A stretch of 64,000 nucleotides of DNA, from the NCBI GenBank assembly GCA_937127435.1, contig CAKZLZ010000156.1:10554-74553 (forward strand). Direction: 5' to 3'. Positions 3,336 to 55,809 of the stretch are shown here, one piece after another. The stretch's first letter is position 1, and each line of letters begins with the position of its first letter. The stretch is from an uncultured Verrucomicrobiota bacterium (GTDB lineage: Bacteria; Verrucomicrobiota; Kiritimatiellia; SS1-B-03-39; UBA6053). The translations under genes and the position numbers were made by a program. The notes beneath the pieces are model-generated. The model saw only the letters and a program-made list of their open reading frames with translations. It was not told where the DNA came from and did no database searches.

Positions 3336-5588
3336 ATGTCAAACCCACCCACAGATAAAGCGTCCTTTCCTCCCATCGCCCGGGTGGTGGTGGATGTGGC
3401 GTTGGACAAAGAATTTGACTACCTTATTCCGGTGGAAATGCGCGGGAAGCTGTTGACCGGAATGCAGGTAAAGGTTCCCTTCGGACGCAGGGAAACCGAA
3501 GGTTTTGTACTGGGGTTTAAAGAGAAATCAGATTTCAGTGGCTTAAAGTCTATTTCCGGATTGGCGCAGGAAGGTGCCTTGCTCTCCCCAAAAATCATGG
3601 AATTGGCCAAGTGGATGGCGGACTATTATGTGGCCCCTATCGAACATGCGGTCAAAACCGTTTTGCCCGGCGCAGTACGTAAACGGGGTGCGGGGTTCAA
3701 AAAACAACTCTTTGCCACCCCCGGTGAAAAATCTGCAATCGAAAGTGAATTGGTGCCGTTGCGGCGACAAGCACCCAAACAAGCGGCGGCCCTGGATATT
3801 TTGCTGTCCGGCGAGCAAATGTTGATGTCTGATTTGGTGCGTGCCGCCAAAGTGACCCATGGCACTTTACGTTCGTTGGAGAAAAAAGGATTCATTCAAC
3901 TTACGGAAGGGGTGCAGGGACGGGATCCGCTGGCCAATCAGGAATTTTTGCGGACCAAAGATCTGAAACTGAACAGTGAACAGTCGGATTGTCTGGGGAA
4001 AATCAATGTGGGCATTGATAGTGGAAATTTAAAAGTGGTGCTTTTGCACGGGGTGACCGGCAGCGGAAAAACCGAAGTCTATTTGCAGGCACTTTCCCAC
4101 GCCCTGGCTTTAGGCAAGGGGGCGATTGTGTTGGTGCCGGAAATTGCATTGACCCCGCAGACGGTGGAACGTTTCCGCGGTCGCTTCGGCGAATGTCTGG
4201 CGGTTTTGCACAGCCACCTGTCCGACGGGGAACGCCACGACGAATGGCACCGGGTAAAACGGGGCGAAGCCACGGTGGTGGTGGGCGCACGATCGGCTTT
4301 GTTTGCGCCGGTCAAAAATTTAGGGCTCATCGTGGTCGATGAAGAACATGAGTCGACCTATAAACAGGAGGAAAGCCCACGCTACCACGCCCGCGACTTG
4401 GCGGTAATGCGTGGGCATCTCGAAGGCTGCACGGTGGTGTTGGGTTCGGCGACCCCGTCCGTGGAAAGTTTGGAAAATGTGCATCAGGGAAAATACGAGT
4501 TGGCGAAACTGGGGATCCGCGCGGATGACCGGCAGTTGCCTTTGGTCAAAGTGGTGGACATGCGTCATCAACGTTATGAAGGCAAACCGACATTGTTTTC
4601 CAACGATTTGGTGGAGGGGATTCGCCTGCGCATCAACTTAGGGGAGCAGGTCATGTTGTTTCTCAACCGGCGGGGCTACTCCAAAAATTTGACTTGTCCG
4701 GAATGCGGATTTGTCCCCGAGTGTCCGGACTGTTCGGTGGCGCTGACCTATCACAAGCGGCTGGGATATTTACGCTGTCACTTTTGCGGACACGCGGAAC
4801 GGGTACCCGACCGCTGTCCGCAGCCGGATTGCAAAGCGGAAGACTGGCAATACATGGGCTCGGGCACCGAGAAGATCGAAAACCAGCTGGCCCGCATTTT
4901 TCCTCATGCCCACATCCGTCGAATGGACAGTGACACCATGACTTCCAAGCACGCCTATCATCATGTGTTGGGTGCTTTCCGGAAAGGGGAGATCGATATT
5001 TTGATCGGCACCCAGATGATTGCCAAAGGCCTGCATTTTCCCAATGTGACTTTGGTGGGAGTGGTGAATGCGGATGCGACTTTGCATATGCCGGATTTCC
5101 GGGCGGGAGAGCGGGCTTTTCAATTGTTCACCCAGGTGGCGGGGCGGGCCGGACGTGGAGATGTGGCGGGAGAAGTGTTGATTCAAACCTACACGCCCAC
5201 CCATCCGGCGGTACAGGCCGCGCGGCGGGGGGATTTTGATGTATTTATCGACGAAGAACTCGAAGCCCGCAAGATGCTCAATTATCCTCCCTATTGCCGG
5301 TTGATCTGTGTGCATTTTAAAGGGGAGAATGAACAGCAGGTGGATTTTGTATCCGGTCAGGTATTTAACGAACTTGATCGGCTGCTGGGCGAAAATCCCG
5401 ATGTGAATTTGGCCCCGCCGGTCCCTTCACCCATTGCGCGTATTCAGAAGAATTACCGCTATCAGATGATCGCCCGGGTCCCGCGCACCAAACTTTTTAC
5501 AGTGCCCTTGCGGCATGTTCTCGACGGGCTCAAGCTCCCCCGGCAGGTCCAAATCATCGTGGATGTGGATGCGATCAGTTTGATGTGA
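3336..5588 (+). CDS. priA: Primosomal protein N' (replication-restart helicase)
   Basis: LLHGVTGSGKTEVY, IVVDEEHE, LGSATPS, FLNRRGY, paired CxxC zinc motifs, QVAGRAGR, IIVDVD at C-terminus; start taken at ATG 3336. Confidence 0.97.
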   Translation: MSNPPTDKASFPPIARVVVDVALDKEFDYLIPVEMRGKLLTGMQVKVPFGRRETEGFVLGFKEKSDFSGLKSISGLAQEGALLSPKIMELAKWMADYYVAPIEHAVKTVLPGAVRKRGAGFKKQLFATPGEKSAIESELVPLRRQAPKQAAALDILLSGEQMLMSDLVRAAKVTHGTLRSLEKKGFIQLTEGVQGRDPLANQEFLRTKDLKLNSEQSDCLGKINVGIDSGNLKVVLLHGVTGSGKTEVYLQALSHALALGKGAIVLVPEIALTPQTVERFRGRFGECLAVLHSHLSDGERHDEWHRVKRGEATVVVGARSALFAPVKNLGLIVVDEEHESTYKQEESPRYHARDLAVMRGHLEGCTVVLGSATPSVESLENVHQGKYELAKLGIRADDRQLPLVKVVDMRHQRYEGKPTLFSNDLVEGIRLRINLGEQVMLFLNRRGYSKNLTCPECGFVPECPDCSVALTYHKRLGYLRCHFCGHAERVPDRCPQPDCKAEDWQYMGSGTEKIENQLARIFPHAHIRRMDSDTMTSKHAYHHVLGAFRKGEIDILIGTQMIAKGLHFPNVTLVGVVNADATLHMPDFRAGERAFQLFTQVAGRAGRGDVAGEVLIQTYTPTHPAVQAARRGDFDVFIDEELEARKMLNYPPYCRLICVHFKGENEQQVDFVSGQVFNELDRLLGENPDVNLAPPVPSPIARIQKNYRYQMIARVPRTKLFTVPLRHVLDGLKLPRQVQIIVDVDAISLM

Positions 5589-5589
5589 A
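5546..5589 (+). repeat. priA 3' end; left copy of a 44-bp direct repeat (right copy 14483-14526)
   Basis: GGTCCAAATCATCGTGGATGTGGATGCGATCAGTTTGATGTGAA vs GGTCCCAATCATTGTGGATGTGGATGCGATCAGTTTGATGTGAA, 42/44 identical. Confidence 0.95.
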
Positions 5590-5612
5590 CGTTCCCGTCT
5601 GTTGAGTGCAGG

Positions 5613-5641
5613 TTGACATGGTCATTTAAAATGACTATATT
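5613..5641 (+). promoter_or_regulatory. Sigma70-type promoter of the TA operon with palindromic operator in the spacer
   Basis: TTGACA (5613-5618), 17 bp, TATATT (5636-5641); spacer holds near-perfect palindrome GTCATTTAAAATGAC (5621-5635). Confidence 0.75.
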
Positions 5642-5647
5642 GAAATT

Positions 5648-5875
5648 ATGAAAACCATGGCCATTACTGAATTTAAATCGCATGCCCTGAAAGTTCTGAA
5701 TGATCTTTCGAAAGATCAGGAATCTATTGTGATCACCAAACGGGGCAAACCCATTGCGGAAGTCGTTGCCTACAAAGAAAAACCCCTTCAAATGGGGAGT
5801 TTACGTGGGACGGTGCTTTATGAGGGGGATATCATTTCTCCACTGGGCGAAGAGATGTGGGATGCATGTAAATGA
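5648..5875 (+). CDS. Phd/YefM-family antitoxin
   Basis: 75 aa; ITEFKSH...L.......ESIVITKRGKPIAEVV Phd-type N-terminus; 4-bp overlap with the PIN gene. Confidence 0.9.
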   Translation: MKTMAITEFKSHALKVLNDLSKDQESIVITKRGKPIAEVVAYKEKPLQMGSLRGTVLYEGDIISPLGEEMWDACK

Positions 5876-6270
5876 AGTATGTATTGGATACACATACTTG
5901 GATATGGTGGAATGCCAATCCTGATAAATTATCCATTGATGTAAAAGAGTTGCTGGGTAACCCAGACCGGTTTTCAGAGATCCTTTTATCGGCAATTTCT
6001 CCATGGGAATTTTGTAAACTGATTGAGAAAAAGAGATACCTTATTTCTAATCATCCCCTCGAATGGATCGATCAGGCTTTGAAAATGACTAAATTACGGC
6101 TGGTACCCTTGACGCCTGCAATCAGCTACCGGTCAACCTCTCTTCCAGGATCTTTTCACGCGGATCCGGCCGATCAAATCATTGTCGCCACAGTAATGGA
6201 AGAAAATGCCATCCTTATCACCAAAGACGGACTGATTCAAAATTACCCACACCTGCGTACCCTATGGTAA
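5872..6270 (+). CDS. PIN-domain (VapC-like) toxin
   Basis: 132 aa; YVLDTHTWIWW, SAISPWE, HADPADQIIVAT, LITKDG. Confidence 0.92.
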   Translation: MKYVLDTHTWIWWNANPDKLSIDVKELLGNPDRFSEILLSAISPWEFCKLIEKKRYLISNHPLEWIDQALKMTKLRLVPLTPAISYRSTSLPGSFHADPADQIIVATVMEENAILITKDGLIQNYPHLRTLW

Positions 6271-6292
6271 AGATCCCGAGTTCCGGATGTTA

Positions 6293-7411
6293 TTATTCCG
6301 ATACGAGGCTGCTTAACGGTTCCTGATCCAAGTGACGAACCACGGGGCGTTTTTTGGGAGAGCGGGTGGTGCTCCCCGAGCACCAAAACCCGGGATTGAG
6401 CGCGAACACCGGATGCTCCGGCGTTCCCCGTTCCGCCCGGTGTATCTGACCAATCAGAATATCCATCATGGTTTGCAACTGACTTTCCATATCCTGATTG
6501 ATCCCGGTCACATCCTCCGATCCTTCCCCCCACTGGTCCAAGGTGGCGTAGCCCAGGTCCTTCGGAAATTTGATCCCCTCCTGCAGCAGCATGCGGTATA
6601 CCTCCTGGCCCGGACTGACCACAACATCGAGACGGTTTTTATCGATCCAGGCCAGGAGTGCGTTCGCATCATATTCTTCCGGAACAAAGATCGGGAGTTC
6701 GTTCATTACCCCTCGAAGTTGTTTCCAAAGGAGGTAGGCCGCGGACCAACGGTGATGCGTGCGAAGTTCCACATCCTGCCACATGGTGAGTCCGATTCGT
6801 TTGTATCCATCCGCTTCAAGCTCTGCCAAGGTCGTTAACATTCCCCTGAAGTGGTTATGCCGGACCCCACTGATCCGGGGGACCATCAGGGTATCGGAAA
6901 ATTCCACTGCACAGAATTTATCCCATTCCACGGGCAACGTTCTCACCCCCTGATGAAACATTTCCGGATGGATCATGGGGATGATGATTCCTTCGATTCC
7001 ACGTGTCCACATGATCCGGTTGATTCTCTCCGGAGTTGTGTCGGGATTATTCAGCCAAAAGGATTCCAGTTGGTATCCCCGGCTGTCTGTGATCTCCGTA
7101 AGCTTCGAGAAAATCTTTTGTTCCACAGGGTTCCATTCCTCGGTGGGGCCGCTGCGGATAAATCCCAAGGTCCCCTGATCTTTTAACGGTCCCTTTTTGG
7201 TGCTGGACATCAGTTTGGAGAGATGCGGGTTTGGTCGATAGCCCATCTCTTTGGCCAAAAATTTTATTTTTTCTTTGGTGGTCTTGGAAATTCTCGGGTG
7301 TCCTTTCAGAGCGAGGGAAACCGTGGCCTTGGATACCCCGGCCCGGTCGGCGATTTGCTGAAGAGAAACACTTTTGCGCTTTTGCATTCTTGGATTAGAT
7401 GCCGAATTCAC
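6293..7411 (-). CDS. LacI-family transcriptional regulator
   Basis: VSLQQIADRAGVSKATVSLAL...GYRPN helix-turn-helix plus periplasmic-binding-protein-like effector domain; true start may be a few codons later (MQKRK). Confidence 0.9.
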   Translation of the reverse strand: MNSASNPRMQKRKSVSLQQIADRAGVSKATVSLALKGHPRISKTTKEKIKFLAKEMGYRPNPHLSKLMSSTKKGPLKDQGTLGFIRSGPTEEWNPVEQKIFSKLTEITDSRGYQLESFWLNNPDTTPERINRIMWTRGIEGIIIPMIHPEMFHQGVRTLPVEWDKFCAVEFSDTLMVPRISGVRHNHFRGMLTTLAELEADGYKRIGLTMWQDVELRTHHRWSAAYLLWKQLRGVMNELPIFVPEEYDANALLAWIDKNRLDVVVSPGQEVYRMLLQEGIKFPKDLGYATLDQWGEGSEDVTGINQDMESQLQTMMDILIGQIHRAERGTPEHPVFALNPGFWCSGSTTRSPKKRPVVRHLDQEPLSSLVSE

Positions 7412-7485
7412 AGGGGAGTCAACGTTAACTTAGCTCGCGGATAAAATATCTACCAAATCAATGAAAAGAGATTTAGACTGGTGAC

Positions 7486-8595
7486 ATGATGAAAATACAA
7501 CTCCTTCCCACGATCGTTCTTTCCGCTGTCTGCTTCACTTCACTCTTCGCTCAGACCAACACTGATTGGAATGGAGGGGGGGCTACTGATATTTGGTCTG
7601 ATGCCGCCAATTGGAGTGCGGGTACGCCTGATACCAATAGTGAAGTGGCTCGTTACCTCTCTTTCCCAACCATTGATATTGAGGTGGACAGCGACCACAC
7701 CATTAACAGTTACCTCGATGGTTTCGACGGGGCGGGGCAAACAACGACCTTTTCCGGCACGGGTGTGCTTACGGTTGACCGAAACCTGGCTGGCTATAGC
7801 GTGGGTATCAACAACGCAACGGGTGGTGTGGGTGGGACGTTGAAATTCAGCGGCAAGGTCACGATCGATAATTCGCTTGGTGGAGCCACTGCCGTCCAAA
7901 ACTCGAATGGCACGAACAATATTACAGAGTTTGCTGCTGGAAGCACTTTGACACTAAACACGAATTTCCAAATTAATAACAGTGGCAGTTACCTGTTTAA
8001 CGGCACACTGGCCGGCTCTGCTGATTTTATCGCCGCCTCTTCGCCCGGTATATCCTTTGGGGTTGGGCACGATAGTAGCGGTTACACGGGTAATGTAATT
8101 TATTATTCAAACGGAAAGGTGGCGATTGATGGAGGCACTGTACTCAGTAACAGCCAAAGGTTTCAAGTGAATGGCAATAACAGTGAATTGGAGTTAAACG
8201 CTGCAGACGCGATCAATGGTGCAGGTATATCCATTGCGGGAACCAATACATTCCTCCTTGATGCGAATGCGAATCAGGATGACATGGGATTTCTTAATTT
8301 AGGTGAAGGCACATTAAATCTTGATCTTGCTGCCGGAGTAACGGGTCTCTCTTTCGCTGACAGTTCTGCGTTTGACTGGACGGGCGGTACCGTAAATATT
8401 ACCGGTTTCCGCGAAGGCGTGATTAAATTCGGGAACGATGACACCGGTCTAACCGCTGGCCAACTCGACACCATTGATGACGGAATTTACAGTCTTACCG
8501 ATGAGGGGTATCTCACCATACCCGAACCCGGCACCATCCCCTTGTTTCTGATCTTCGGTTTCGGTCTGCTGTTTTCCCGCCGCCGGAAAAACTGA
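7486..8595 (+). CDS. PEP-CTERM surface protein with beta-strand-repeat passenger-like body
   Basis: Signal peptide, WNGGG....WS..ANW motif, G/N/T-rich repeats, C-terminal IPEPGT + hydrophobic stretch + RRRKN. Confidence 0.88.
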   Translation: MMKIQLLPTIVLSAVCFTSLFAQTNTDWNGGGATDIWSDAANWSAGTPDTNSEVARYLSFPTIDIEVDSDHTINSYLDGFDGAGQTTTFSGTGVLTVDRNLAGYSVGINNATGGVGGTLKFSGKVTIDNSLGGATAVQNSNGTNNITEFAAGSTLTLNTNFQINNSGSYLFNGTLAGSADFIAASSPGISFGVGHDSSGYTGNVIYYSNGKVAIDGGTVLSNSQRFQVNGNNSELELNAADAINGAGISIAGTNTFLLDANANQDDMGFLNLGEGTLNLDLAAGVTGLSFADSSAFDWTGGTVNITGFREGVIKFGNDDTGLTAGQLDTIDDGIYSLTDEGYLTIPEPGTIPLFLIFGFGLLFSRRRKN

Positions 8596-8683
8596 AACTT
8601 TTCCCCTTCTTCTTGTCCTTCGAATCTATCCCTCCTTCGGGAGGGAACGGATGAGACTTGTAATTCAACTCAGATAAATCTTT

Positions 8684-10339
8684 ATGCGTATTTTCCGATC
8701 AGCGATATTTATATCCTCAGTGCTCATAAGCCTGGCGGCTCTGGCACAACCCAACATTGTGTTCATTTTGACGGATGATGTGGGAACGGGCTGGATTCCG
8801 CCTTACGCGGAAAAACTGACGGTGGCGGATATCGAACCGGAAATTGTAGGGCAATATCAACAGACGCATGGCCATCAGGGGGCGGTCGACCTCGAAGCCC
8901 ATCTGGCGGCGGCAAAAGTGAGCATGCCCACGCTCTCCAAACTGTCCAAACAAAGTGCCGTCTTCCACCGGGCTTTTGCCACGGCTTCTCTCTGCTCCCC
9001 CAGTCGGGCGGGGTTGCTCACGGGGAGTTTTCAACAGACCTGGGGCGCTTACTGGAATAAGGATGTGGATGACCACGGAATCCCCGCCGACCGCACTTTA
9101 CTTTCCGAATCCCTTCATAAAGCCGGATACCGTTGTGGCATTGTCGGGAAATGGCATGTGGCCAAGCAGGATCCGCGAATCATGGAGAAAGCCTGGGTGG
9201 AGGAATTGGGTGAAGAGCTGCCCATCCCAAAATATTACGGAGGGAAGTGGCCGCAATTGCAGAAGGCCATGCGTGCCAATGCCTGGAAAACTTCATCCGC
9301 ACCCGGCCAGCATCCCTTGGACCGGGGATTTGACTACTACTTCGGCTACAACAGTTATGATGATCAGGATTATGGCTCCGAAACCCTTTGGGAAGGGTGG
9401 GCGCGGGTTCCCAAAAGACCGGAGGGCGAATTTCTAACTGATCTGTTTAACCGCAAAGCGGTGGAATTTATTGAAAGCTCACTGGACCGGAAAAAACCAT
9501 TCTTCCTCTATTACGCCCCTAAAACCCTTCACGGCGGCATTAAACGTCCACCGGAATCTTACGTGCAAAACTTTGATACCGGCAACAGGTTCAGTGACCT
9601 TTTCGCGGGGCACCTGTTGGCGTTGGATGACGGAATCGGAAAAATTTTACAGACCCTGGAAACCAGAAAACAGCTGGAGAACACGCTGATTATTTTTACT
9701 TCAGACAATGGATTCACCCTCTACAATGTCCCGCCCTACAATGCCCCCAACCGGGGAGGAAAAGGAAGCGGATGGCTTGGAGGATTGAATGTGCCCCTGA
9801 TCATCTGGAACCCCAAACTGATCCGGCCGGGAGAGTACAATGACATTGTCAGCCTGGCGGATCTTATGCCCACCATTCTGAATTTCGTGGGAATGGATCC
9901 GCCGTCCGGAATTGACGGAATAAGTTTGTTTCCCTATCTGATCGGGGCCAGCGACAGGCCTCCGCGGAAATCACTCGGCGCGGCGGGAATTCATTCTTCC
10001 CGCTGGTCCTATTCATATGAAACCCATGGCGAAAACAACACCAAGGATGCCATGGAAGCCCCCATGTATGCCTGGGTTCTGGAAGAAGATATGTTGTTGA
10101 TGCAGATCACAGAAACGCCTCCCGGATTGTATGAAAATTTACCCGAAGGACTTCCCGGGAGAACGCTGCTATTTGATATAGAAAGCGACCGCGCGCAGCG
10201 TGAAAACTTGGCTGAAGCGTTTCCGGAAAAGATTCCTCTCCTTCAATCCCGCGTTTCAGAATGGTTGCAACACACGGCTGAACCCCTAACATCCCAACAG
10301 GATGCATATGAGCATCTCCAACAACCGGACACCCCCTGA
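8684..10339 (+). CDS. Formylglycine-dependent (S1) sulfatase, secreted
   Basis: PNIVFILTDD, CSPSRAGLLTG (CxPxR), GKWH, RGFDYYFG, IFTSDNG; signal peptide. Confidence 0.93.
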   Translation: MRIFRSAIFISSVLISLAALAQPNIVFILTDDVGTGWIPPYAEKLTVADIEPEIVGQYQQTHGHQGAVDLEAHLAAAKVSMPTLSKLSKQSAVFHRAFATASLCSPSRAGLLTGSFQQTWGAYWNKDVDDHGIPADRTLLSESLHKAGYRCGIVGKWHVAKQDPRIMEKAWVEELGEELPIPKYYGGKWPQLQKAMRANAWKTSSAPGQHPLDRGFDYYFGYNSYDDQDYGSETLWEGWARVPKRPEGEFLTDLFNRKAVEFIESSLDRKKPFFLYYAPKTLHGGIKRPPESYVQNFDTGNRFSDLFAGHLLALDDGIGKILQTLETRKQLENTLIIFTSDNGFTLYNVPPYNAPNRGGKGSGWLGGLNVPLIIWNPKLIRPGEYNDIVSLADLMPTILNFVGMDPPSGIDGISLFPYLIGASDRPPRKSLGAAGIHSSRWSYSYETHGENNTKDAMEAPMYAWVLEEDMLLMQITETPPGLYENLPEGLPGRTLLFDIESDRAQRENLAEAFPEKIPLLQSRVSEWLQHTAEPLTSQQDAYEHLQQPDTP

Positions 10340-10344
10340 TTCCC

Positions 10345-11043
10345 ATGCATGGTTCTCAAACCCATTCCAATAAGGCCCGCCAATCCGACGCTTTCACGCT
10401 GATTGAAATGCTGGTGGTGATTGCGATTATTGCCCTGTTGGCATCACTGATTATCCCTGCGGTCACGGGAACCCTCGCAAGGGCCAAAAAAACCTCCGCC
10501 ATGAGTAATCTGCGGCAACTTGGAATCGGCGTCGTGGCCTATGCAACAGATAATAATGGCAGGTTTCCCCGGGGCGGTTTTCAGCCCTTATACTGGCATA
10601 ATGACATTTATCCTTATGTAGGAAATGATCCCTCCGTGTTCCGGGATCCGGCGGGTCATACAGAATATGGTGACCCCTGGGTACAATTTGAAGAGGATGG
10701 TGAAGATCTTCCTTTTGACTTTGGATACAATGCCCATATCAATCCTTATTCAGGCTCCGAACTGGTAAATGAAAAACCCTGGAACCAGGGCCCAAGAGAT
10801 CTCTCGGATATTATGGGGTATCCGGTGCCTCTCATTCACACCATCGTAAACCAAAACAACTTTGTTTTCTGGACCTTCTCACTGCCTGAGAACTCCGGGA
10901 ACCGGCAGGCCTACGACCCGCGCCATTCGGGCAGAGGACTCGTGCTCTGGACCGACAGCAGTATCTCCTCGCCCACCTATGCGGAATACATGCAGATGGC
11001 CGAAGACCGGGGTGGGCCTTCAGCTTTTGTCACGGGCCAATAA
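10345..11043 (+). CDS. Prepilin-type N-terminal cleavage/methylation domain protein (pseudopilin-like)
   Basis: AFTLIEMLVVIAIIALLASLIIPAV...ARAKKTSAMSNLRQLG; C-terminal RH.G...LW.D motif of the PVC-expanded class. Confidence 0.88.
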   Translation: MHGSQTHSNKARQSDAFTLIEMLVVIAIIALLASLIIPAVTGTLARAKKTSAMSNLRQLGIGVVAYATDNNGRFPRGGFQPLYWHNDIYPYVGNDPSVFRDPAGHTEYGDPWVQFEEDGEDLPFDFGYNAHINPYSGSELVNEKPWNQGPRDLSDIMGYPVPLIHTIVNQNNFVFWTFSLPENSGNRQAYDPRHSGRGLVLWTDSSISSPTYAEYMQMAEDRGGPSAFVTGQ

Positions 11044-11047
11044 TAAA

Positions 11048-12733: not shown

Positions 12734-12749
12734 TTTTTTCACCCCCGCT

Positions 12750-14411: not shown

Positions 14412-14487
14412 TGCCGAACTCAAAAGGCTCGGTACAGACATGATTTCCACCATGTGGGAAGAAGAGGGGGATCGGACTGGCCGGTCC
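14374..14487 (+). pseudogene. Displaced internal fragment of a peptide deformylase gene
   Basis: 14407-14487 matches def 15349-15428 at 75/80 plus a 1-nt insertion; upstream codons read ILRQTAKPVTQFD vs resident VLREKAAPITNFD. Confidence 0.9.
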
Positions 14488-14526
14488 CAATCATTGTGGA
14501 TGTGGATGCGATCAGTTTGATGTGAA
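14483..14526 (+). pseudogene. Displaced copy of the priA 3' end, including the stop codon
   Basis: 42/44 identical to 5546-5589; encodes IIVDVDAISLM-stop. Confidence 0.93.
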
Positions 14527-14532
14527 ATAAAA

Positions 14533-47638: not shown

Positions 47639-49243
47639 TTAGTCTGCTTTCTGTTCGAGGACTTGTCCCTCTGCCAGTAGCTTTTCCCGTAGCTGTGGAT
47701 AGTCCAAATCCTGTAAGGCGCAGGTACTTTCCAGCGCAAGGTCGGCCGCCACTGCGGCACTGTGGGCCATGGCCATAAATACCGGTTCCATGCGCACGGA
47801 TCCATAGGCGATGTGGGAAGAGGAAAGGCAAACCGGTACCAGGATGTTTTCACATTCACCTTTGGCGGGGATGATGGAACGGTAGCTGACGCCGTAGGGG
47901 GCTTTGGGTTTTAACTGCACATCCCCCTCGTTCATCACCCGTCCGTCCCGAACGAAGCGTTGGCAGTTGTGACTGTCCATCGCGTAGGATCCCATGGCGA
48001 TGGGGTCGGCGGGCTGACGGAAATGTTGGGTGTCCTGTTCATTCAACACGTAGTCGGAGATCATGCGGCGCCCTTCACGGACATAAAGTTGATGGGGCCA
48101 GTGGGCAGTGTCGGTAAACTCATCTTTGGGAAGTCCCCAGCGGGCGTAGCCTGCGCGATAGCGCTCTGGAATAGAAGGGTCATTGGCCATAAACCAAAAT
48201 TGTCCTTTGATGTAGGTGACGTGATCCTGAAAGATTTTTTCACGCTCCTGATACCCCGCTTCGGGCCAGGCGTAGTTTGCACCAATATAATCGCTGGAGA
48301 CCGGACCGTGATTGTTGGTATCGGTTTTGGAAAAGCCCCCGGCAGTTTTCGGGCGCAGGATATCAAATTTCATCAAACGGTCCCCGGGTTTTGCATCCGG
48401 GTCCCGCAGGTGTTCGTTATACCAGTCTTTCTCGGAATTGAACCAGCGGCGGGCCAGCTCGTATTCTTCCGGATTGTAGTTTTCGGGTTTTTCCCAATCG
48501 ATTTTGAGATCGGGATCATCGGTCATGCAGACCCGGAAATTGTAGGCCTGAATTCGATGGTCGCCGGAACCTGAAGGATTACAGTCTTGCTCATTGATCC
48601 AGGGCAGGGTGCCGCTTTGAGGATCACCGGGGATCACATAGGGATCGACAAAATGGCTGAACTGATGTTTGTCGCGGTACTGTACGCCGTTAATGGTCTC
48701 ACCGTAGACGGAATTCGCTTCGCGTCCGACGTGGTAACTTACTCCTGCCTTGGCGTAGAGGTCACCTTCGTAGGTGCAGTCCATAAAGTAGGAACCACTC
48801 ACTTCCAATCCGCCCAGCATTTTGATCGAAGTGATACGGTTGTTTTCCAGTTTCACCTGATCCAGGTACTGAAGTTGATAAACGGTGATGCCCTCGGTTT
48901 CGGCATAGCGGTCTATAACCGCTTGGGCGGCTTTGGGTTCAAACAACCATTCAGGTTCCTCCAGACCGTAATAGTCGCCTAAATCTTTGTAGAAAAGGTA
49001 GGACATACCACCGATCACGCCTTTTTTGCCGAAGTCTGTCCATCCCAAACCGCCGGTGGTCATGCCGCCGAGGTGGCGGGCCGGATTGAGAATGACGACT
49101 TTGCGTCCTTTTTCAGCCAGGTTCTTGGCGGCGATAACCCCGGCGGCGGTGCCGCCGTAAATGACGACTTCGGTATCAATTTTTTCAGTGCGGGTTTGAA
49201 TCCATTCCGGAAGAAAATAGTGGGGGGCATTGGGTGTGTTCAT
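47639..49243 (-). CDS. FAD-dependent oxidoreductase (PF12831-like)
   Basis: VVIYGGTAAG, HLGGMTTGGLG, DCTYEGDL, QAYNFRVC, LYVREGRRM, GSVRMEPVFM. Confidence 0.9.
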   Translation of the reverse strand: MNTPNAPHYFLPEWIQTRTEKIDTEVVIYGGTAAGVIAAKNLAEKGRKVVILNPARHLGGMTTGGLGWTDFGKKGVIGGMSYLFYKDLGDYYGLEEPEWLFEPKAAQAVIDRYAETEGITVYQLQYLDQVKLENNRITSIKMLGGLEVSGSYFMDCTYEGDLYAKAGVSYHVGREANSVYGETINGVQYRDKHQFSHFVDPYVIPGDPQSGTLPWINEQDCNPSGSGDHRIQAYNFRVCMTDDPDLKIDWEKPENYNPEEYELARRWFNSEKDWYNEHLRDPDAKPGDRLMKFDILRPKTAGGFSKTDTNNHGPVSSDYIGANYAWPEAGYQEREKIFQDHVTYIKGQFWFMANDPSIPERYRAGYARWGLPKDEFTDTAHWPHQLYVREGRRMISDYVLNEQDTQHFRQPADPIAMGSYAMDSHNCQRFVRDGRVMNEGDVQLKPKAPYGVSYRSIIPAKGECENILVPVCLSSSHIAYGSVRMEPVFMAMAHSAAVAADLALESTCALQDLDYPQLREKLLAEGQVLEQKAD

Positions 49244-49315
49244 GGGGAAAGCTCTACTGAATATTGGCTGGACTGCTACATTAAATCCGGGGAAATTTTG
49301 GAAGGTAACTTGTCG

Positions 49316-52222
49316 ATGAAAGGTTTTGATCTAAAGGCTGTCTACTCTATAACCCCCGTTCTCATGCTTTTAGTTTACCAATTTTATGCCGTAGATTCCC
49401 TTCATTTGAGTGTACGTTGTTTTTCGCTGGATTTGCCTCAGGGTGACCGTTGGACGGGTACGGCTTATCCTTTAAAGCTGGATCACATCCTTGCCGGAAA
49501 GGTGAAAGGGTTACGCGTCACCAAGTTGGATCGCAAAATCCTGACCTCCATGCAAATGCATCAAAAGATTGGGGGAAATGAGAGTCTTTTTCAGGGTTTG
49601 GATGTAACGCGTCTGTTGGACCGGCTCATTGAATCGGGTCGGGCTTATCCCGCGGGCAAAAAAAATGCCTGGCCGCTCTCCGCCGGGGAAAATCCGGAAC
49701 CGAGCCTGGAATGGGTTCTGGAACCTGAAGGGTTAAAAACGACCGTAAACCTGGAGGAGGGCTGGCATTTGATTCCGGGGAGACCGGCCTATGGGTTGCA
49801 TGCGGATACCGGAAAGTGCGCTTCCGTGAAGTTGACGGTTTCCGATAAAGTGTTGTGGAAATGGATCACCATGCCCCTGATGACTGAACAGGCGGCCACT
49901 GATTTTTGGATAAAATTGGGTGAAGAATTTCCAGAAGATCTTTTGCCCGCACCTCCCAGTTTGAAAGTGAAGAGGAAAGAAGGGGTGAGGCCGGTACCGG
50001 TGCTTGAAGTGATGGAGCCGGATCAGACTTTGCAGATTCCGCGCACCGCGCGTCTGATGTTTCAATACGGGAAACAAATCATCTGCATTGATCAGGAGGG
50101 CGAGCTGGTGCGTTGGCTGGAAAAGGGCGGGGGAGTCGAGGTACAAAGAGACCATGCGGAGGAAGCAAAATATAAAAAGGTTCTGCCGACGATGGGTTTG
50201 CGGGAGTATCAAACGGCTTCCGACCAATTGTTTGCGGTTTCGCTGCCTGAAACCCGCTATGAATTGGATCCGGCTGCGCATAGTAGTTGGGATCTGTTTG
50301 TGATGAATGCGGAACCCGACTTTCGGGAAGCGGGCTGGCTACTGAATTTACCGCAGGCTTTGCGTCCGACCTGGGTGGACAACGATCAGTGGTACCGCAG
50401 TTTTGAGTCGGGCGGGAAAGAGGGGCTTTGTTATGAGCAGGGGATTGAAGTGGACGGGAAGCGGATCAATCTTCTGCCGGTGTTGCAGGATTTTTTGATG
50501 TATCGCAAACAAAATTCACTGGGAGAAATTTTAGAGGAGATTGGTACGGGGTCTTTTCCTCTACATAGTGAAGTGGGCTTGTTGATGATTGATGCGGGTC
50601 GTTTTCAGCAAATGGTGAAAACCTTATTCGAGTTGTTTGGGGGCGGCAGCCTGGATCGGCAAAACCGCTTGCGGATCAGCGACTGGCGGGCGGCGGAATT
50701 GTACGACGAAGAGGTCGAAGGATGGCAGCCGACCCCGGAACTGCTCAAAGCGGTGGAAGGCTTGGGGGCGCAGGATTTGCAGGTGCAGAGCCTCGAACCA
50801 CCGACAGGTTTTGTCGGCGAGTTGCGGGATTATCAAAAACGGGGCTTAGGCTGGATCGATTTTCTTTCCAAGTACCATTTGGGCGGCATCCTGGCCGATG
50901 ATATGGGGTTGGGGAAAACGGTGCAAGTGATTGCGGCTTTCTTGGAAATAAAAAATAATGTCTCAGGTGAGACATTATTTTTGGTGGTTTGTCCGACCAG
51001 TGTTCTGCCCAACTGGAAATCGGAAATAAAAAAATTTGCGCCGGGTTTACGAGTCCACACCCATCACGGCAGCGACCGGAATCAGCGTCAGGACAACTTG
51101 CGCAATGCGGAGGTGCTGATCACCACGTACGGAACCTTGCTGCGGGATGAAGGCCAATTCAAAGACATGAAATTTTCGGGCATCATTTTGGATGAAGCCC
51201 AGGCGATCAAAAATCCCCGGGCAAAAATCAGTAAAGTGGTCTGCGGATTACAGGCGGATCTGCGATTGGCTTTGTCGGGGACTCCCCTGGAAAATCATTT
51301 GGGTGAACTACGCTCGCTGTTTCAGTTTGCTTTGCCGGGATATTTGGGAAGTGAAAAGATTTTTAATGCGGTGATCCGTCATCCGATTGAAAAAGACAAT
51401 TCGTCCCGGGCGAAAGAATTGTTGCGTCAGAAGACCGCGCCCATCCTGTTGCGCCGCAGCAAAGATGCGGTGGCCACGGAGTTGCCTCCCAAAACGGAGA
51501 TCGTGCAGGAGCTGCCTTTAACGCCCCAGCAAGTAGATCTATATGAAGTGATTCGGGCCGCAGGTGAAAAGGATTTAATGGAAACCATCCAGGATCAGGG
51601 TTTTGAGCGTTCGCAGATTCAGGTCTTGGATGTGTTGTTGAAGTTGCGGCAGATCTGTTGTGATCCGCGGATTTGTAAAGCGGTTCCCAAAGATGTGAAA
51701 TTGGAGTCGCCGGTGAAGATCCAGTGGTTGCGGGAAGTCTTGCCGGAAATGCTGGAAGAGGGACGGCGGATTTTGTTGTTCTCCCAGTTTACTTCGATGC
51801 TGGATTTGATTCAGGTGGAAATGAAGGATCTGAAGATTCCCTTTGTGGAGATTCGGGGATCGACCAAAGACCGGGAAAAACCGGTGAAAGATTTTCAAAG
51901 TGGAAAGGTGCCGGTGTTCCTGATCAGCCTCAAAGCGGGTGGAACCGGATTAAATCTGACGGCGGCGGATACGGTGATCTTCTTTGATCCCTGGTGGAAT
52001 CCGGCGGTGGAAGCGCAGGCCGCCGATCGCGCGTACCGTATCGGACAGGACAAGCCGGTATTTGTGTATAAACTGATTTGTGCCGGCACGGTGGAGTCAC
52101 GGATCATCGAACTGCAAGAGCAGAAGAAGGCTTTGCAGGATGTGCTTCATTCGGATGCGGGTGGCGGCATGAAACTCAGTGAAGACGATTTCCGGGCCCT
52201 GCTGTCTCCGCTAGAGAAGTGA
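49316..52222 (+). CDS. SNF2-family helicase-like ATPase
   Basis: LRDYQ, GILADDMGLGKT, ILDEAQAIKN, LSGTPLENHL, LFSQF, SLKAGGTGLNLT, DRAYRIGQ; start at ATG 49316 after GAAGGT. Confidence 0.92.
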   Translation: MKGFDLKAVYSITPVLMLLVYQFYAVDSLHLSVRCFSLDLPQGDRWTGTAYPLKLDHILAGKVKGLRVTKLDRKILTSMQMHQKIGGNESLFQGLDVTRLLDRLIESGRAYPAGKKNAWPLSAGENPEPSLEWVLEPEGLKTTVNLEEGWHLIPGRPAYGLHADTGKCASVKLTVSDKVLWKWITMPLMTEQAATDFWIKLGEEFPEDLLPAPPSLKVKRKEGVRPVPVLEVMEPDQTLQIPRTARLMFQYGKQIICIDQEGELVRWLEKGGGVEVQRDHAEEAKYKKVLPTMGLREYQTASDQLFAVSLPETRYELDPAAHSSWDLFVMNAEPDFREAGWLLNLPQALRPTWVDNDQWYRSFESGGKEGLCYEQGIEVDGKRINLLPVLQDFLMYRKQNSLGEILEEIGTGSFPLHSEVGLLMIDAGRFQQMVKTLFELFGGGSLDRQNRLRISDWRAAELYDEEVEGWQPTPELLKAVEGLGAQDLQVQSLEPPTGFVGELRDYQKRGLGWIDFLSKYHLGGILADDMGLGKTVQVIAAFLEIKNNVSGETLFLVVCPTSVLPNWKSEIKKFAPGLRVHTHHGSDRNQRQDNLRNAEVLITTYGTLLRDEGQFKDMKFSGIILDEAQAIKNPRAKISKVVCGLQADLRLALSGTPLENHLGELRSLFQFALPGYLGSEKIFNAVIRHPIEKDNSSRAKELLRQKTAPILLRRSKDAVATELPPKTEIVQELPLTPQQVDLYEVIRAAGEKDLMETIQDQGFERSQIQVLDVLLKLRQICCDPRICKAVPKDVKLESPVKIQWLREVLPEMLEEGRRILLFSQFTSMLDLIQVEMKDLKIPFVEIRGSTKDREKPVKDFQSGKVPVFLISLKAGGTGLNLTAADTVIFFDPWWNPAVEAQAADRAYRIGQDKPVFVYKLICAGTVESRIIELQEQKKALQDVLHSDAGGGMKLSEDDFRALLSPLEK

Positions 52223-52343: not shown

Positions 52344-53354
52344 TCACGACGGTCTCAAGCTGGACCCCTCCACCCATTTTCCGTTGTGAAGCAGGGTTTT
52401 GGGGATTTCGGGGATGCCGGTTTCTTTGCGTAGACGGGCGTTCATCACTAGATCTACTGCTGATTCCGCAATGAGCGCGAAGGGCTGAAGAATGCCTGCG
52501 ATGATGCCGTCATCACGAAAACAGCTCATAGATGCAAACCCCATCTCAGGACAATGCGCCTTCTGAAAGGCGTGCCATTGAGACTTGTTCCCTATGATCA
52601 TATCTGGATCCATTTTCTTTAACCAGCCGACTTTTTCAGATGCATTTTCTATTTTCGATCTGAAAATTCTGTTTTCCCCACCTGTTTCCCAGGCCATAAA
52701 GGCTGCGGAGTAGGCCCGGTGGGTCCGCGCTTCAAAATCCATATCAAGCATGAGCACGGGTCGTCTGTAGCCCTTTTGATGGATTTGTTCTAAGGCATGA
52801 ATCATCGAATAAAAGTGGCTGACTTGTGACCGGTGCAAGGGGGGATCTTTCAAACTGCTTCCAATGTGAACGGCACTGAAGTCCTGCCAATCCAATTCAG
52901 GTGCCGGAATATCTGCATCATTTGAAGGCGTGATGATGATACTTTGGATGCCTCGTGCTTTTAGAATACGGTTCAGGGCTTTTGCGTTTAAATCTGGCGT
53001 GAGTGGAATGTGTTCCAGTTTAAATCCATGATGTTGAGCGCCGCTTTCCAGACCCTTACAGGTTTGTTGAGCGTAGCTATGCATGTTTTTAACCCCTTTC
53101 CAGCGGGCGGGCCACCAAATGACGGCCACCGTTTCCTGATAGGTTACAGGTTTTCGGGCCGCGAAACTACTCATTAATTCGCTCACCATATGATCAGGTT
53201 TGTAGCCCATCTCCTCAGCCTTTTTGAGGATTTTCACCCGCATTTCTGGTCGAATGGATGCTTCGGGTGAGAATGCCCGTGACACCATCATACGAGAAAC
53301 GCCAACGGCTTCTGCAATTTGGCGCAGAGAGGGAGGAGGGCTTGAATTATTCAT
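52344..53354 (-). CDS. LacI-family transcriptional regulator
   Basis: SLRQIAEAVGVSRMMVSRAF...MGYKPD helix-turn-helix; same subtype as 6293-7411. Confidence 0.88.
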   Translation of the reverse strand: MNNSSPPPSLRQIAEAVGVSRMMVSRAFSPEASIRPEMRVKILKKAEEMGYKPDHMVSELMSSFAARKPVTYQETVAVIWWPARWKGVKNMHSYAQQTCKGLESGAQHHGFKLEHIPLTPDLNAKALNRILKARGIQSIIITPSNDADIPAPELDWQDFSAVHIGSSLKDPPLHRSQVSHFYSMIHALEQIHQKGYRRPVLMLDMDFEARTHRAYSAAFMAWETGGENRIFRSKIENASEKVGWLKKMDPDMIIGNKSQWHAFQKAHCPEMGFASMSCFRDDGIIAGILQPFALIAESAVDLVMNARLRKETGIPEIPKTLLHNGKWVEGSSLRPS

Positions 53355-53465
53355 AGAGGTGTTTTGCTTTGTGACAGTAACAAAATCAAGAAGCTATTTG
53401 ACGCCGTTTATCCATGGTATGAGAGATTTACACGTATGCCTAACGCTACGAAAGGAGCCTTCTCT

Positions 53466-54164
53466 ATGAAAAAACTAAAACGCACCCTTCTTTGTACAGC
53501 ATCTGCAGTCCTCTGCTTAACACCTGCTCGCACAGATATCCTGGTTCATTATGCTTTCACGGGTGGTTCCTCAGCCCCGAACAGTGAGTGGACGGGTGTC
53601 GATGCCGATAATTTTGTTGCCAACTTTGGTGTAAATACATCTGCCTCGTCGGGCGATGATGCCGGGTTTTCTTCGTTCTCAGAAAATGCCTATATCCGGA
53701 CGGATGCCACGGGTTCAACTGAAGCAGCAGCGCTTTCAGATGATGATTATTTCAGCTTTGAGATCTCAGCCGCAAACCCAGGAGAATTCCTGAATTTGGC
53801 ATCACTCGTGTTTGATTTTGGCGGTTCTTCGGGTTCGGAATATGATAGCGAGATTTATGTGCAGTCAAGTGTGGGTGGATTCGGTACTGGAAACCCAGTC
53901 ATTTTTACCAGTACCCATACTGTGCCTGCAAGTTCAGCGGATGCTGCGGGATTGACCTCTGGAACATCCGTAGATCTGACAGGATTTGCTCCTGTGGAAA
54001 CGATCTCTTTTCAATTTCGTTTTTCAGATGATGCAGGTACTCTCAGCCAATTAAATCGTCTCGACAACGTGATCTTAAATGGGGCGGTGGTAATTCCTGA
54101 GCCTTCTTCCCTCTTTTTACTGAGTATTGCTGTGCTGGGTCTAATCTTTTATAAAAGAAAATAA
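53466..54164 (+). CDS. PEP-CTERM surface protein
   Basis: AAGGAG RBS, signal peptide, RLDNVILNG, IPEPSS + hydrophobic stretch + YKRK. Confidence 0.87.
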   Translation: MKKLKRTLLCTASAVLCLTPARTDILVHYAFTGGSSAPNSEWTGVDADNFVANFGVNTSASSGDDAGFSSFSENAYIRTDATGSTEAAALSDDDYFSFEISAANPGEFLNLASLVFDFGGSSGSEYDSEIYVQSSVGGFGTGNPVIFTSTHTVPASSADAAGLTSGTSVDLTGFAPVETISFQFRFSDDAGTLSQLNRLDNVILNGAVVIPEPSSLFLLSIAVLGLIFYKRK

Positions 54165-54166
54165 AT

Positions 54167-55759
54167 ATGTTTGATATCGTCATTTACGGTGGAACGAGTG
54201 CAGGGGTCATGGCCGCGATCCAGGCCGCTCGGATGGGTAAATCTGTTGCATTAATTGAACCTGGAAAACACCTCGGGGGCATGACCACCGGGGGACTCGG
54301 GTGGGTGGATGTGGGAAATCCGCAAACCATCGGCGGACTTGCCCGGGAGTATTTCCACAGCGTTTGGAAACACTATCAGGATGAAGCCGCATGGAAATGG
54401 GAGACCAAGCGGCAAATGAAGGGACAGCATGCTCCGCTGTCTCCTGATGAACAAACCATGTGGATACTTGAACCTTCCGTCGCGGAGCACCTGTTTGAAA
54501 AAATGGTGGGCGAAGCAAACGTGTTGGTTTTACGCAACCAGTGGCTGAACCGCGAAAGCGGGGTGAAAATGGAAGGAGAAAAGATCGTCAGTATCGGTAT
54601 GGAATCGGGCCGGATTTTTGAAGCAAAGATGTTTATTGACGCCAGTTATGAGGGAGATCTCATGGCAGCTGCAGGGGTCTCGTATACAGTTGGACGCGAA
54701 TCAAATAGTCAATACAACGAAACCGTAAATGGAAAAACATCTCTGCCAAAAGCAGGGACCCTGCCCGATATAGATCCTTATCAAATACCAGGAGATGCGA
54801 GCAGCGGACTCCTGCCCCGCATTCATGCCGACAGGGGTGGAGAAGTGGGCGGGGGCGATCAGGAAGTACAAGCGTACAACTATCGAATGTGTCTTACAAA
54901 GGTTCCTGAAAACCGTATAAGCATTGAAAAGCCCGCCACATACGACGAAAAAAACTACGAGATCGTATTCCGCTTCATCGAAGCGGGTGGAATGGAGAAT
55001 GATTTTTTCATACATCATCTGCATGGGTCCATACTCAAGAATGACCCGCTCCCCAATGGAAAGACGGACACCAATAACAATGGATATATTTCCACGGATT
55101 ATGTGGGAATGAGCGGGGAGTATCCAGAGGCGGATTACGCCACCCGTAAGCGCATTGCCCACGCACATGAACAATGGCAAAGAGGCTTGGTCTGGACCCT
55201 GCAAAATCATCCGCGCATTCCCGAACCCCTGCGCAATCAATACGCGCCATGGGGTCTGGCCAAGGACGAATTTATCGATAACGGGCACTGGCCCACCCAG
55301 CTGTATATTCGGGAAGCCCGCCGAATGATCTCAGATCATGTTATCACTGAGCATATCGCCCGTAGCAAAGAAATTGCCCCGGATCCATTGGGACTGGGTT
55401 CTTATGCCATCGATTCTCATGCGACAAAATGGTTCGTTTCCCCTGAAGGCTTTATGAGCCGGGACGGCGGCATGTTCCACAGACTGCCTCAACCCTTTGG
55501 AATCAGCTATCGTGCCCTGATACCCAAACGCAATGAATGCCAAAATCTCTTGGTGCCTGTCTGCGTCTCCGCCACCCATGCCGCATATGGATCCATTCGG
55601 ATGGAACCGGCTTTTATGGTGTTGGGACAATCCGTTGCGACTGCCGCAAGTCTTGCGATTGACCGTAATAACATCCCCTTGCAGGATTTACCCTACGATG
55701 TGCTGCGGGCGTGTTTATTGTCGGACGGGCAAATTATCGATTGGCCAGCGGGGGAATGA
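54167..55759 (+). CDS. FAD-dependent oxidoreductase (PF12831-like)
   Basis: DIVIYGGTSAG, HLGGMTTGGLG, DASYEGDL, QAYNYRMCLT, LYIREARRM, GSIRMEPAFM. Confidence 0.9.
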   Translation: MFDIVIYGGTSAGVMAAIQAARMGKSVALIEPGKHLGGMTTGGLGWVDVGNPQTIGGLAREYFHSVWKHYQDEAAWKWETKRQMKGQHAPLSPDEQTMWILEPSVAEHLFEKMVGEANVLVLRNQWLNRESGVKMEGEKIVSIGMESGRIFEAKMFIDASYEGDLMAAAGVSYTVGRESNSQYNETVNGKTSLPKAGTLPDIDPYQIPGDASSGLLPRIHADRGGEVGGGDQEVQAYNYRMCLTKVPENRISIEKPATYDEKNYEIVFRFIEAGGMENDFFIHHLHGSILKNDPLPNGKTDTNNNGYISTDYVGMSGEYPEADYATRKRIAHAHEQWQRGLVWTLQNHPRIPEPLRNQYAPWGLAKDEFIDNGHWPTQLYIREARRMISDHVITEHIARSKEIAPDPLGLGSYAIDSHATKWFVSPEGFMSRDGGMFHRLPQPFGISYRALIPKRNECQNLLVPVCVSATHAAYGSIRMEPAFMVLGQSVATAASLAIDRNNIPLQDLPYDVLRACLLSDGQIIDWPAGE

Positions 55760-55809
55760 AACGCAGCGAAGACGATTTTCGCAAGGTGCTGTCGCCGCTT
55801 GAGAAGTAA
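55756..55809 (+). pseudogene. Displaced, diverged copy of the SNF2 gene 3' end
   Basis: 43/54 identical to 52169-52222; MKRSEDDFRKVLSPLEK-stop vs MKLSEDDFRALLSPLEK-stop. Confidence 0.9.

Follow-up and report, generated by a model that had tools for sequence, protein, structure and literature searches.

Displaced 3′ gene ends between alternative cargo blocks at four core loci of a marine Kiritimatiellota contig

Four core genes with displaced 3′ ends

We analyzed a 64,000-nucleotide (nt) contig stretch from a marine member of the Kiritimatiellota (hereafter ‘the window’, whose numbering is used throughout), taken from a metagenome-derived assembly, in which four conserved genes are each followed, 1.3–8.9 kb downstream, by a displaced copy of their own 3′ end. 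These genes are priA, comM, an ATP-binding cassette (ABC) exporter gene and a SNF2-family helicase gene. The PriA protein of the window shares 94% amino acid (aa) identity with its counterpart in Kiritimatiellota strain B1221 and 89% with the one in strain B12222 (complete genome, CP120722.1) over 769 aa, and the sequenced relatives used for comparison diverge from the window by 10–25%.

The arrangement at all four loci can be written A-X-(B′)|A′-Y-B, where A and B are the upstream and downstream core genes, X and Y are cargo blocks, and A′ and B′ are displaced pieces. Two alternative cargo blocks thus lie head to tail, with a copy of the A end between them. The resident A genes are full length when compared with their orthologs. 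The X and Y blocks have no genes in common, so that the repeat units differ in content, unlike those of a simple tandem duplication.

A preliminary description of this DNA had reported the four repeat pairs, and alignment confirmed each of them. The end of priA (5546–5589) and its copy (14483–14526) are identical at 42 of 44 nt, including an uninterrupted stretch of 31 nt. The end of comM together with the spacer that follows it (17541–17870, corresponding to the last ∼180 nt of the gene plus 150 nt of spacer) recurs at 19525–19821; identity is ∼80% in the coding part, where the copy has deletions of 6 and 30 nt, and 91–96% in the 150-nt downstream spacer. A scan of the window against Rfam, intended to explain why this spacer is more conserved than the coding part, returned no family. 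The end of the ABC exporter gene (35956–36010) recurs at 37255–37308, with both copies encoding (D/E)GYYRSLVEA and differing by synonymous changes, and the end of the SNF2 gene (52163–52222) recurs at 55750–55809 with 79% identity. The four pairs share no sequence with one another.

As a control for chance matches, the last 80 nt of 28 plus-strand genes of the window were each searched against the following 20 kb, a check that had been proposed with the preliminary description. Significant copies were found for four genes only (E = 1e-15, 5e-6, 5e-6 and 7e-4), and the four loci stand out accordingly; the remaining plus-strand genes had no significant end copy within 20 kb (E of at least 0.017). 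Neither an integrase nor a transposase was detected in the window, either among its 40 main open reading frames (Pfam) or among the unannotated ones (NCBIfam and PHROGs). The structural reading put forward earlier (A-X-B′|A′-Y-B with microhomology joints, intact resident genes and no integrase) holds.

Joints and gap contents at the individual loci

The first locus lies between priA and def and contains the following features (assigned with Pfam and NCBIfam, and by alignment for the displaced pieces):

3279–5588, plus strand: priA (core gene A1), full length, with Pfam PriA domains; first repeat copy at 5542–5589
5590–14367, mixed strands: cargo block X1
5648–5875, plus strand: Phd antitoxin (X1)
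5872–6270, plus strand: VapC/PIN protein (X1)
6293–7411, minus strand: LacI (X1)
7486–8595: PEP-CTERM protein (X1)
8684–10339: sulfatase (X1)
10345–11043: prepilin-type N-methyl protein (X1)
11063–12733: beta-helix protein (X1)
12750–14411: GH110-like alpha-1,3-galactosidase (X1), native stop lost
∼14368–14487, plus strand: def′ (B1′), def nt ∼29–148 with a +1 G frameshift, encoding ...RILRQTAKPVTQFDAELKRLGTDMISTMWEEEG
14479–14526, plus strand: priA′ (A1′), the displaced last ∼40–48 nt of priA
14533–15108, minus strand: Y1, a 191-aa protein without known function (Pfam)
15283–15825, plus strand: def (core gene B1), Pfam Pep_deformylase

The displaced pieces of downstream genes noted earlier are real, both here (def) and at the third locus (M90/MtfA-like); the def piece is not the 76-nt internal fragment originally described, and instead spans ∼14368–14487. 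It is 87–93% identical to the core of the resident def gene and continues past GAAGAAGAGGGG as ATCGGACTGGCCGGTCC, with a single G added. The def′|priA′ joint falls inside a 9-nt microhomology at 14479–14487 (def GGCCGGTCC, priA GGCAGGTCC; GGC[C/A]GGTCC, matching at 8 of 9 positions). On the cargo side, the native stop of the GH110-like gene is gone and its reading frame continues for 13 codons into def′, giving a C-terminus ∼10 residues longer than those of eight homologs.

The content of this gap differs among relatives. In B12222 and L007, def follows priA after only 50–100 nt, and L005 and L008 carry other inserts of 2.6–2.9 kb between the two genes. We also compared the window with contigs from public metagenome runs (runs X1, X2, X3, X4 and X7, names that are distinct from those of cargo blocks X1–X4; run X1 is from sediment and run X2 from seawater). 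A 2,074-nt contig of run X2, ∼95% identical to the window, joins position 5558 to 14496 and skips exactly 8,937 nt, with 31 nt fitting either side of the joint; it represents a single-ended priA-Y1-def allele without X1. Two contigs of run X1 (14332–14494 and 14469–14777, 97–99% identical) contain the def′|priA′ joint. The priA event is therefore polymorphic among strains that are ∼95–99% identical. A parental A-X1-B allele was sought through the closest homolog of the GH110-like gene; the nearest such block (76% aa identity) lies in another context, away from any priA or def. Between def and comM, the spacer (15817–15966) contains ∼9–10 copies of a 15-nt tandem repeat (TTTAGGGCAGGATGA-like), and one contig of run X3 has 14 nt fewer at 15831.

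The comM locus, where the corresponding assignments were made with Pfam, NCBIfam and alignment, is organized as follows:

16117–17870, plus strand: comM (core gene A2, 16117–17718) and its conserved downstream spacer; first repeat copy at 17541–17870
17874–19524, minus strand: cargo X2, a 504-aa prenyltransferase/terpene-cyclase-like protein (17874–19388) and its upstream region
19525–19821, plus strand: comM′ and spacer′ (A2′), the displaced last ∼150 nt of comM with its stop lost

The strain in run X2 possesses the X2 cargo gene, and the region upstream of that gene leaves the window sequence at 19501, without comM′. Scans of genome and metagenome contigs with comM-anchored peptide patterns, which matched universally conserved motifs, yielded among the matches listed only distant phyla at 63% identity or less and no close relatives. 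In B12222, comM is split at approximately residue 380 by an element (L006 14534–21704, CP120722.1) whose first gene encodes a large serine recombinase of 538 aa; this position is not that of the comM′ boundary at approximately aa 475. Genes for a radical SAM protein and for an adenine methyltransferase of the D12 class come next, and the whole probably represents a mobile element or prophage that has integrated. The window also contains a 33-nt element ahead of comM (16013–16045), which occurs twice, with 88–91% identity, in L083 (15–47 and 78–110), the B1221 contig that carries mtfA; the pair lies at its head, where the contig breaks.

The third locus, between the ABC exporter gene and an M90/MtfA-like peptidase gene, proved to be more layered than first described; the copy of the exporter gene end is present, and it is accompanied by a fusion to the end of a DUF5685-type gene and a triple spacer repeat (features assigned with Pfam and alignment):

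34038–36032, plus strand: ABC exporter (core gene A3), to whose last position the B12222 ortholog aligns; first repeat copy at 35956–36010
36099–37211, plus strand: cargo block X3
36099–36341, plus strand: antitoxin (X3)
36338–36772, plus strand: VapC/PIN protein (X3)
36762–37211, plus strand: glyoxalase-family protein (X3)
37220–37263, plus strand: mtfA′ (B3′), a 40-nt internal piece of the M90 peptidase gene (nt 483–522), 39 of 40 nt identical
37255–37308, plus strand: ABC′ (A3′), a 3′ piece of the exporter gene without its last 22 nt
37304–37471, plus strand: remnant of a DUF5685-type gene end (last 11 codons, stop at 37335–37337) and spacer repeat R1
37620–38681, plus strand: Y3, gene for a DUF5685 protein
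39356–40162, plus strand: M90/MtfA-like peptidase (core gene B3)

The mtfA′ piece starts 8 nt past the stop of the glyoxalase-family gene and terminates with the microhomology CCCAT(TCAC) of the joint. The mtfA′|ABC′ joint falls within the 9-nt CCCATCAAC, which is found in both parent genes (9 of 9) and occupies 37255–37263 in the scar. ABC′ in turn breaks off 22 nt short of the gene end and continues into the final 11 codons (a Cys/Asp-rich tail) of a DUF5685-type gene. Further copies of the spacer repeat are R2 (38647–38816, after the intact DUF5685 gene) and R3 (39000–39063); viewed as a ∼130-nt unit following DUF5685-type gene ends, the three copies occupy 37338–37471, 38682–38816 and 39000–39063. 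The DUF5685 protein itself (37620–38681) has an unusual Cys/Asp-rich tail, ...CDGCSACDCGDVCCDCDVCCCDCG.

Contigs of runs X2 and X4 differ in the copy number of the spacer unit and include forms without the DUF5685 gene (in run X2 through a joint from 37452 to 38873), and the strain in run X1 joins 36031 to 36776 and thus has no vapBC pair. In B12222 the M90 peptidase gene follows the exporter gene after ∼400 nt. No contig in runs X1, X2, X4 or X7 covers the mtfA′|ABC′ joint. Look-ups of exact protein sequences led only to assembly ERZ928327 (European Nucleotide Archive), which comes from the same sample. Its two MEGAHIT contigs match the window at 100% identity, one ending and the other beginning within the ABC exporter gene (∼35458–35475). 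The window continues through that gene, and therefore represents a different assembly or scaffolding of the same sample.

The fourth locus lies between the SNF2-family helicase gene and secG (assignments by Pfam and NCBIfam, and by alignment for SNF2′):

49073–52222, plus strand: SNF2-family helicase (core gene A4), with orthologs in B1221 and B12222; first repeat copy at 52163–52222
52344–55749, mixed strands: cargo block X4
52344–53354, minus strand: LacI (X4)
53364–54164: PEP-CTERM protein (X4)
54167–55759, plus strand: FAD-dependent oxidoreductase (X4), with its last codons and stop from SNF2′
55750–55809, plus strand: SNF2′ (A4′), the displaced last 58 nt of an SNF2 allele
55845–55927: palindromic element with two ∼27-nt arms, between SNF2′ and Y4
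55941–56563, minus strand: Y4, comprising a VapC/PIN protein (55941–56342) and a Phd antitoxin (56339–56563)
56730–57113: secG (core gene B4), after Y4

At the X4|SNF2′ joint the oxidoreductase gene has lost its last codons and takes its stop from an ATGA in SNF2′; the B1221 gene keeps its native stop. This joint and the ABC′|DUF5685′ joint share 2–5 nt between the joined sequences. A seawater contig of run X2 (55640–55923) spans the X4|SNF2′ joint, which is accordingly common to a strain that is ∼95% identical. Cargo block X4 is present in B1221 at 88–90% nucleotide identity, in the order SNF2-X4-vapB(remnant)-secG, with the vapC next to secG largely deleted; the segment comprising SNF2′ and the palindrome is missing there. 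The same gap in B12222 is occupied by a different 8.6-kb block with LuxR-type regulators and a 1,828-aa PEP-CTERM protein. A second copy of the palindromic element lies at 2700–2760, between a ketohexokinase gene and priA; its arms each contain CCACGGCCCCCGTGG, and the element looks like a repetitive extragenic palindromic (REP) element or a terminator.

Several additional observations concern the window as a whole. In three of the four gaps, a pair of a Phd-type antitoxin and a VapC/PIN toxin stands directly after the A or A′ end (5648–6270 and 36099–36772 on the plus strand, 55941–56563 on the minus strand). A single mobile cassette carrying the three VapC toxins was considered and rejected, because the toxins at these junctions are unrelated to one another. 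Three paralogous genes of the FAD_oxidored family lie within 11 kb (44601–45887 and 47639–49243, both minus strand, and 54167–55759, plus strand), of which 47639–49243 is ∼41% identical to the X4 copy. The genes at 40218–44339 and 46027–47583 are absent from B12222, so the window contains further variable gaps. Finally, a 53-nt direct repeat (26923–26975 and 28041–28093, 79% identical) precedes two adjacent genes without a family match (27085–27894 and 28129–29238), and may be a shared regulatory leader or another remnant.

Origin of the fragments and competing explanations

The four gaps between conserved genes are integration hot spots. The events that left displaced gene ends in them were not uniform and differ in age, and independent samples again contain two of the joints, def′|priA′ and X4|SNF2′, at 95–99% identity. 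Every X block is preceded by an intact gene A, and the homology between the end of that gene and A′ provides an anchor; novel joints with 9-nt microhomologies are present at def′|priA′ and mtfA′|ABC′; a match of at least 8 of 9 nt at a random join has a probability of ∼1e-4. The joints as a group are heterogeneous and irregular, cut into coding sequence and have no common core.

Differences between the displaced copies and the resident genes, taken over all pairs, fall at codon positions 1, 2 and 3 in the ratio 22/16/40 (40 of 78 at third positions; chi-square ∼12 with 2 degrees of freedom, by our own arithmetic), with comM′ alone contributing 16 third-position differences among 28. For priA′ and mtfA′ this signal is weak, with only 1–3 differences each. 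The excess at third positions, together with the retained peptides, indicates that the fragments are alleles from a foreign lineage rather than decayed local duplicates, having diverged mostly within working genes of that lineage and decayed later by frameshifts and deletions. The expectation that displaced pieces should match another strain better than the resident gene was borne out for SNF2′, which is 87% identical over 47 nt to the SNF2 end of B1221 and 79% identical to the resident end, and for priA′, which carries a codon ATT as in B1221 and B12222 where the resident priA has ATC; the weakness of the signal for priA′ and mtfA′ applies here as well. Single-ended alleles, which had been predicted to exist, were found in other metagenomes (priA-Y1-def, and the X2 gene without comM′). 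The third-position excess, the affinity of SNF2′ to B1221 and these single-ended alleles all indicate that the joined parts come from different genomes.

We consider it probable that the scars were built by homologous exchange combined with a microhomology-mediated illegitimate join, either as homology-facilitated illegitimate recombination (HFIR) or as its variant with a circular intermediate and a single crossover. Two gap contents, A-X-B and A-Y-B, would have evolved in different lineages. The cell is taken to be haploid, and the joining of two haplotypes would therefore need imported DNA. Such DNA would have undergone ordinary homologous exchange in or beyond one flanking core gene (A or B), and an illegitimate microhomology join would have connected the end of the incoming piece to a point 40–180 nt before the end of gene A. 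With the join lying inside A and a complete A end contributed by the other parent, A-X-(B′) would derive from one parent and A′-Y-B from the other, leaving gene A intact and both cargo blocks in place; the displaced end of A, in some cases accompanied by part of B, would persist as a decaying fossil. Alternatively, as the preliminary description had proposed, a fragment may have circularized at a microhomology and integrated by a single crossover. This route is compatible with the observations and has a precedent in E. coli (PMC3240628), but its product would be the same as that of linear HFIR. Extra deletions or joins would account for the left edges of both B′ pieces and for the fusion of ABC′ to DUF5685′, which fits the decay of non-functional sequence in a hot spot. 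The donor side, the route of DNA entry and the linear or circular form of the intermediate are inferred only; of the genes bearing on DNA entry or on RecA, comM alone is visible in the window.

Several observations weigh against this explanation. Gene-end remnants are absent from the inserts that relatives acquired independently at the hot spots of priA and SNF2, and the sliding identity of priA exhibits no clear step against five relatives, which at 10–25% divergence are too distant for mapping a breakpoint. As judged from mismatch counts, the single priA end of the run X2 strain resembles the first repeat copy and not priA′, so that its priA-Y1-def allele could also stem from a deletion between the repeats. 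At the SNF2 locus, B1221 has X4 beside Y4 without SNF2′, and the stacking there is explained without the remnant; SNF2′ may thus record an exchange on one side that took place later, rather than the arrival of X4. The comparison suggests that SNF2′ and the palindrome entered a chromosome in which X4 and Y4 were already neighbors, anchored on the side of Y4 and secG. Because mtfA′ comes from the interior of its gene (40 nt) and the first ∼28 nt of def are missing from def′, a simple one-step event fails to account for the left edges of the B′ pieces. The comM′ and mtfA′|ABC′ joints are seen only in assemblies of one sample. Homologous exchange between lineages that are only ∼80% identical, the level observed for the copies, should be rare, and we know of no proof of natural transformation in this phylum.

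Among the competing explanations, a purely intragenomic origin would involve a microhomology-mediated tandem duplication running from the A end to B, one copy of which was later replaced or diverged. Duplication of this type is the commonest spontaneous bacterial rearrangement, and mtfA′ and priA′ are similar enough to their resident counterparts to be recent local copies. We nevertheless regard this origin, which the preliminary description had also entertained, as improbable and disfavor it, given the unshared contents of X and Y, the enrichment of third-position differences with conserved protein in comM′, SNF2′, ABC′ and def′, and the closer match of SNF2′ to B1221; moreover, replacing the content of one copy would still require that X be imported by a further recombination. 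Intragenomic duplication is unlikely at least where the fragments of comM, SNF2, ABC and def are concerned, and could still account for the near-identical priA′ and mtfA′ pieces. The presence of 3′-end replacement with flanking direct repeats is also a classic island signature, and the 31-nt identical stretch of the priA repeats could serve as a core for a site-specific (tyrosine or serine) recombinase acting at gene 3′ ends, whose gene would since have been lost or would lie elsewhere. Elements bearing recombinases do exist in the clade, as the large serine recombinase in the comM gene of B12222 illustrates, but that insertion does not coincide with the comM′ boundary. In the window, Pfam, NCBIfam and PHROGs detected no site-specific recombinase in or at the edge of any block, and the four repeat pairs are unrelated in sequence. 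The cargo consists of ordinary sugar-utilization genes and toxin-antitoxin pairs. Furthermore, def′ and mtfA′ intervene between cargo and A′, and the cargo-side joints shorten the last cargo gene by a few codons (the GH110-like and oxidoreductase genes), neither of which is expected of a discrete element. Decayed or trans-mobilized islands thus appear quite unlikely.

The scars might instead reflect a dedicated integrase-free mechanism that adds cargo at gene 3′ ends, for example one tied to toxin-antitoxin modules or palindromes. The occurrence of four cases in 50 kb speaks for such a mechanism, as do the Phd/VapC pairs after the A or A′ end at three loci and the palindrome beside SNF2′. PIN toxins, however, are RNases and not recombinases, the three VapC proteins are unrelated, the joints are heterogeneous, the inserts of relatives lack remnants, and known general recombination explains the structure; we hold such a mechanism to be highly unlikely. 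Very unlikely as well, in our estimate, is a recombinase-independent accretion process particular to the Kiritimatiellota or to this lineage, by which hot spots would grow rather than have their content replaced, with breakage and rejoining favored just inside the 3′ ends of genes for replication and recombination (priA, comM, SNF2). Such a process might be promoted by toxin-antitoxin pairs or palindromic elements at the joints; if it exists, allele stacking would be a regular, selectable way of gaining cargo without risk to core genes. Least probable of all is an assembly artefact in which co-occurring strain haplotypes (A-X-B and A-Y-B) were chained into one contig. In its favor, the window stems from a metagenome, related samples contain several strains side by side, the only other assembly containing these regions comes from the same sample (100% identical, and therefore not independent), and the mtfA′|ABC′ and comM′ joints have no independent support. 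Chimeras from De Bruijn graphs, on the other hand, need shared k-mers of at least 21–127 nt, compared with the 2–9-nt microhomologies at these joints; the def′|priA′ joint occurs in run X1 and the X4|SNF2′ joint in run X2 at 95–99% identity, and thus in different strains; and the frameshifts and deletions within the fragments are typical of old pseudogene pieces.

Relation to known recombination systems

HFIR was reportedly studied by de Vries and Wackernagel in 2002, Prudhomme et al. in 2002 and Meier and Wackernagel in 2003, and its laboratory events, said to combine one anchor with a short GC-rich microhomology joint, were reportedly described as insertion-deletions. Two later papers (PMC5361080, PMC2884548) attribute its description to work in Acinetobacter baylyi, Streptococcus pneumoniae and Pseudomonas stutzeri. 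The scars in the window resemble such events in having one homologous anchor, one illegitimate microhomology joint, no recombinase and foreign DNA beside the anchor; they differ in that the joint lies inside the anchor, so that the anchor end is duplicated, and in that the events would be natural, old and between lineages ∼80–95% identical. In an E. coli conjugation assay with a plasmid substrate, single crossover of a molecule that had circularized and was partly deleted duplicated 109–950 bp of the anchor (Amarir-Bouhram et al. 2011, PMC3240628). The duplication of the anchor around an insert gives the same A...A′ topology, by the route that the preliminary description had proposed; the substrate there was a plasmid, whereas here it would be a chromosomal fragment with the A end, X and part of B.

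Displaced 3′ ends are also known from polymorphic toxin loci. HFIR has been proposed for arrays of displaced 3′ ends in type VI secretion system (T6SS) loci of Vibrio cholerae and in Rhs loci (Kirchberger et al. 2017, PMC5361080), as well as for dimorphic variable segments (PMC2884548). In Rhs (Jackson et al. 2009), contact-dependent growth inhibition (CDI; PMC3150448) and T6SS arrays (PMC5361080), a new 3′ end and cargo are acquired via the conserved upstream part of the gene, the old 3′ end is pushed downstream and kept, and no integrase is involved. The displaced end in those systems is a different toxin domain with its immunity gene and is kept by selection for immunity, whereas in the window A and A′ are homologous at their ends and specify identical residues, the displaced ends are tails of housekeeping genes without function, and the cargo bears no relation to gene A. 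Given that homology-assisted illegitimate joining is established and that displaced 3′ ends are known (PMC5361080, PMC2884548), the novelty implied in the preliminary description is not supported; the loci are a clean natural example of an established process and not a new mechanism.

Two further comparisons concern the gaps themselves. Hot spots free of mobile elements exhibit raised recombination in their flanking core genes and tend to adjoin repair genes (2017, PMC5635113), and priA, comM and SNF2 would fit that remark. The gaps in the window are similarly variable, lack an integrase, differ in content from relative to relative and are flanked by repair or recombination genes. They differ in that the model for such hot spots invokes double homologous crossover, by which content is replaced without a scar, whereas here one side would be illegitimate, content was added and a scar was left. 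Integrase-borne islands that replace the 3′ ends of their targets (for example tRNA, tmRNA or comM) share the flanking direct repeats and the intact target; here there is no integrase and no common core, and pieces of downstream core genes and a truncated last cargo gene are present instead.

Many bacterial hot spots contain no mobile-element genes, and gene gain at such sites is usually inferred from raised recombination in the flanking genes. At the loci described here the scars can be read at the level of individual bases, as 9-nt microhomologies, displaced gene ends and truncated cargo genes, and alleles of the parental type still exist in wild populations. The diagnostic signature, a diverged copy of the last 40–300 nt of a gene within 20 kb downstream of it, could be applied genome-wide to estimate how frequently this route is used. 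The loci provide natural evidence, from a marine phylum of the uncultivated majority, that homology-assisted illegitimate joining would add cargo rather than swap it.

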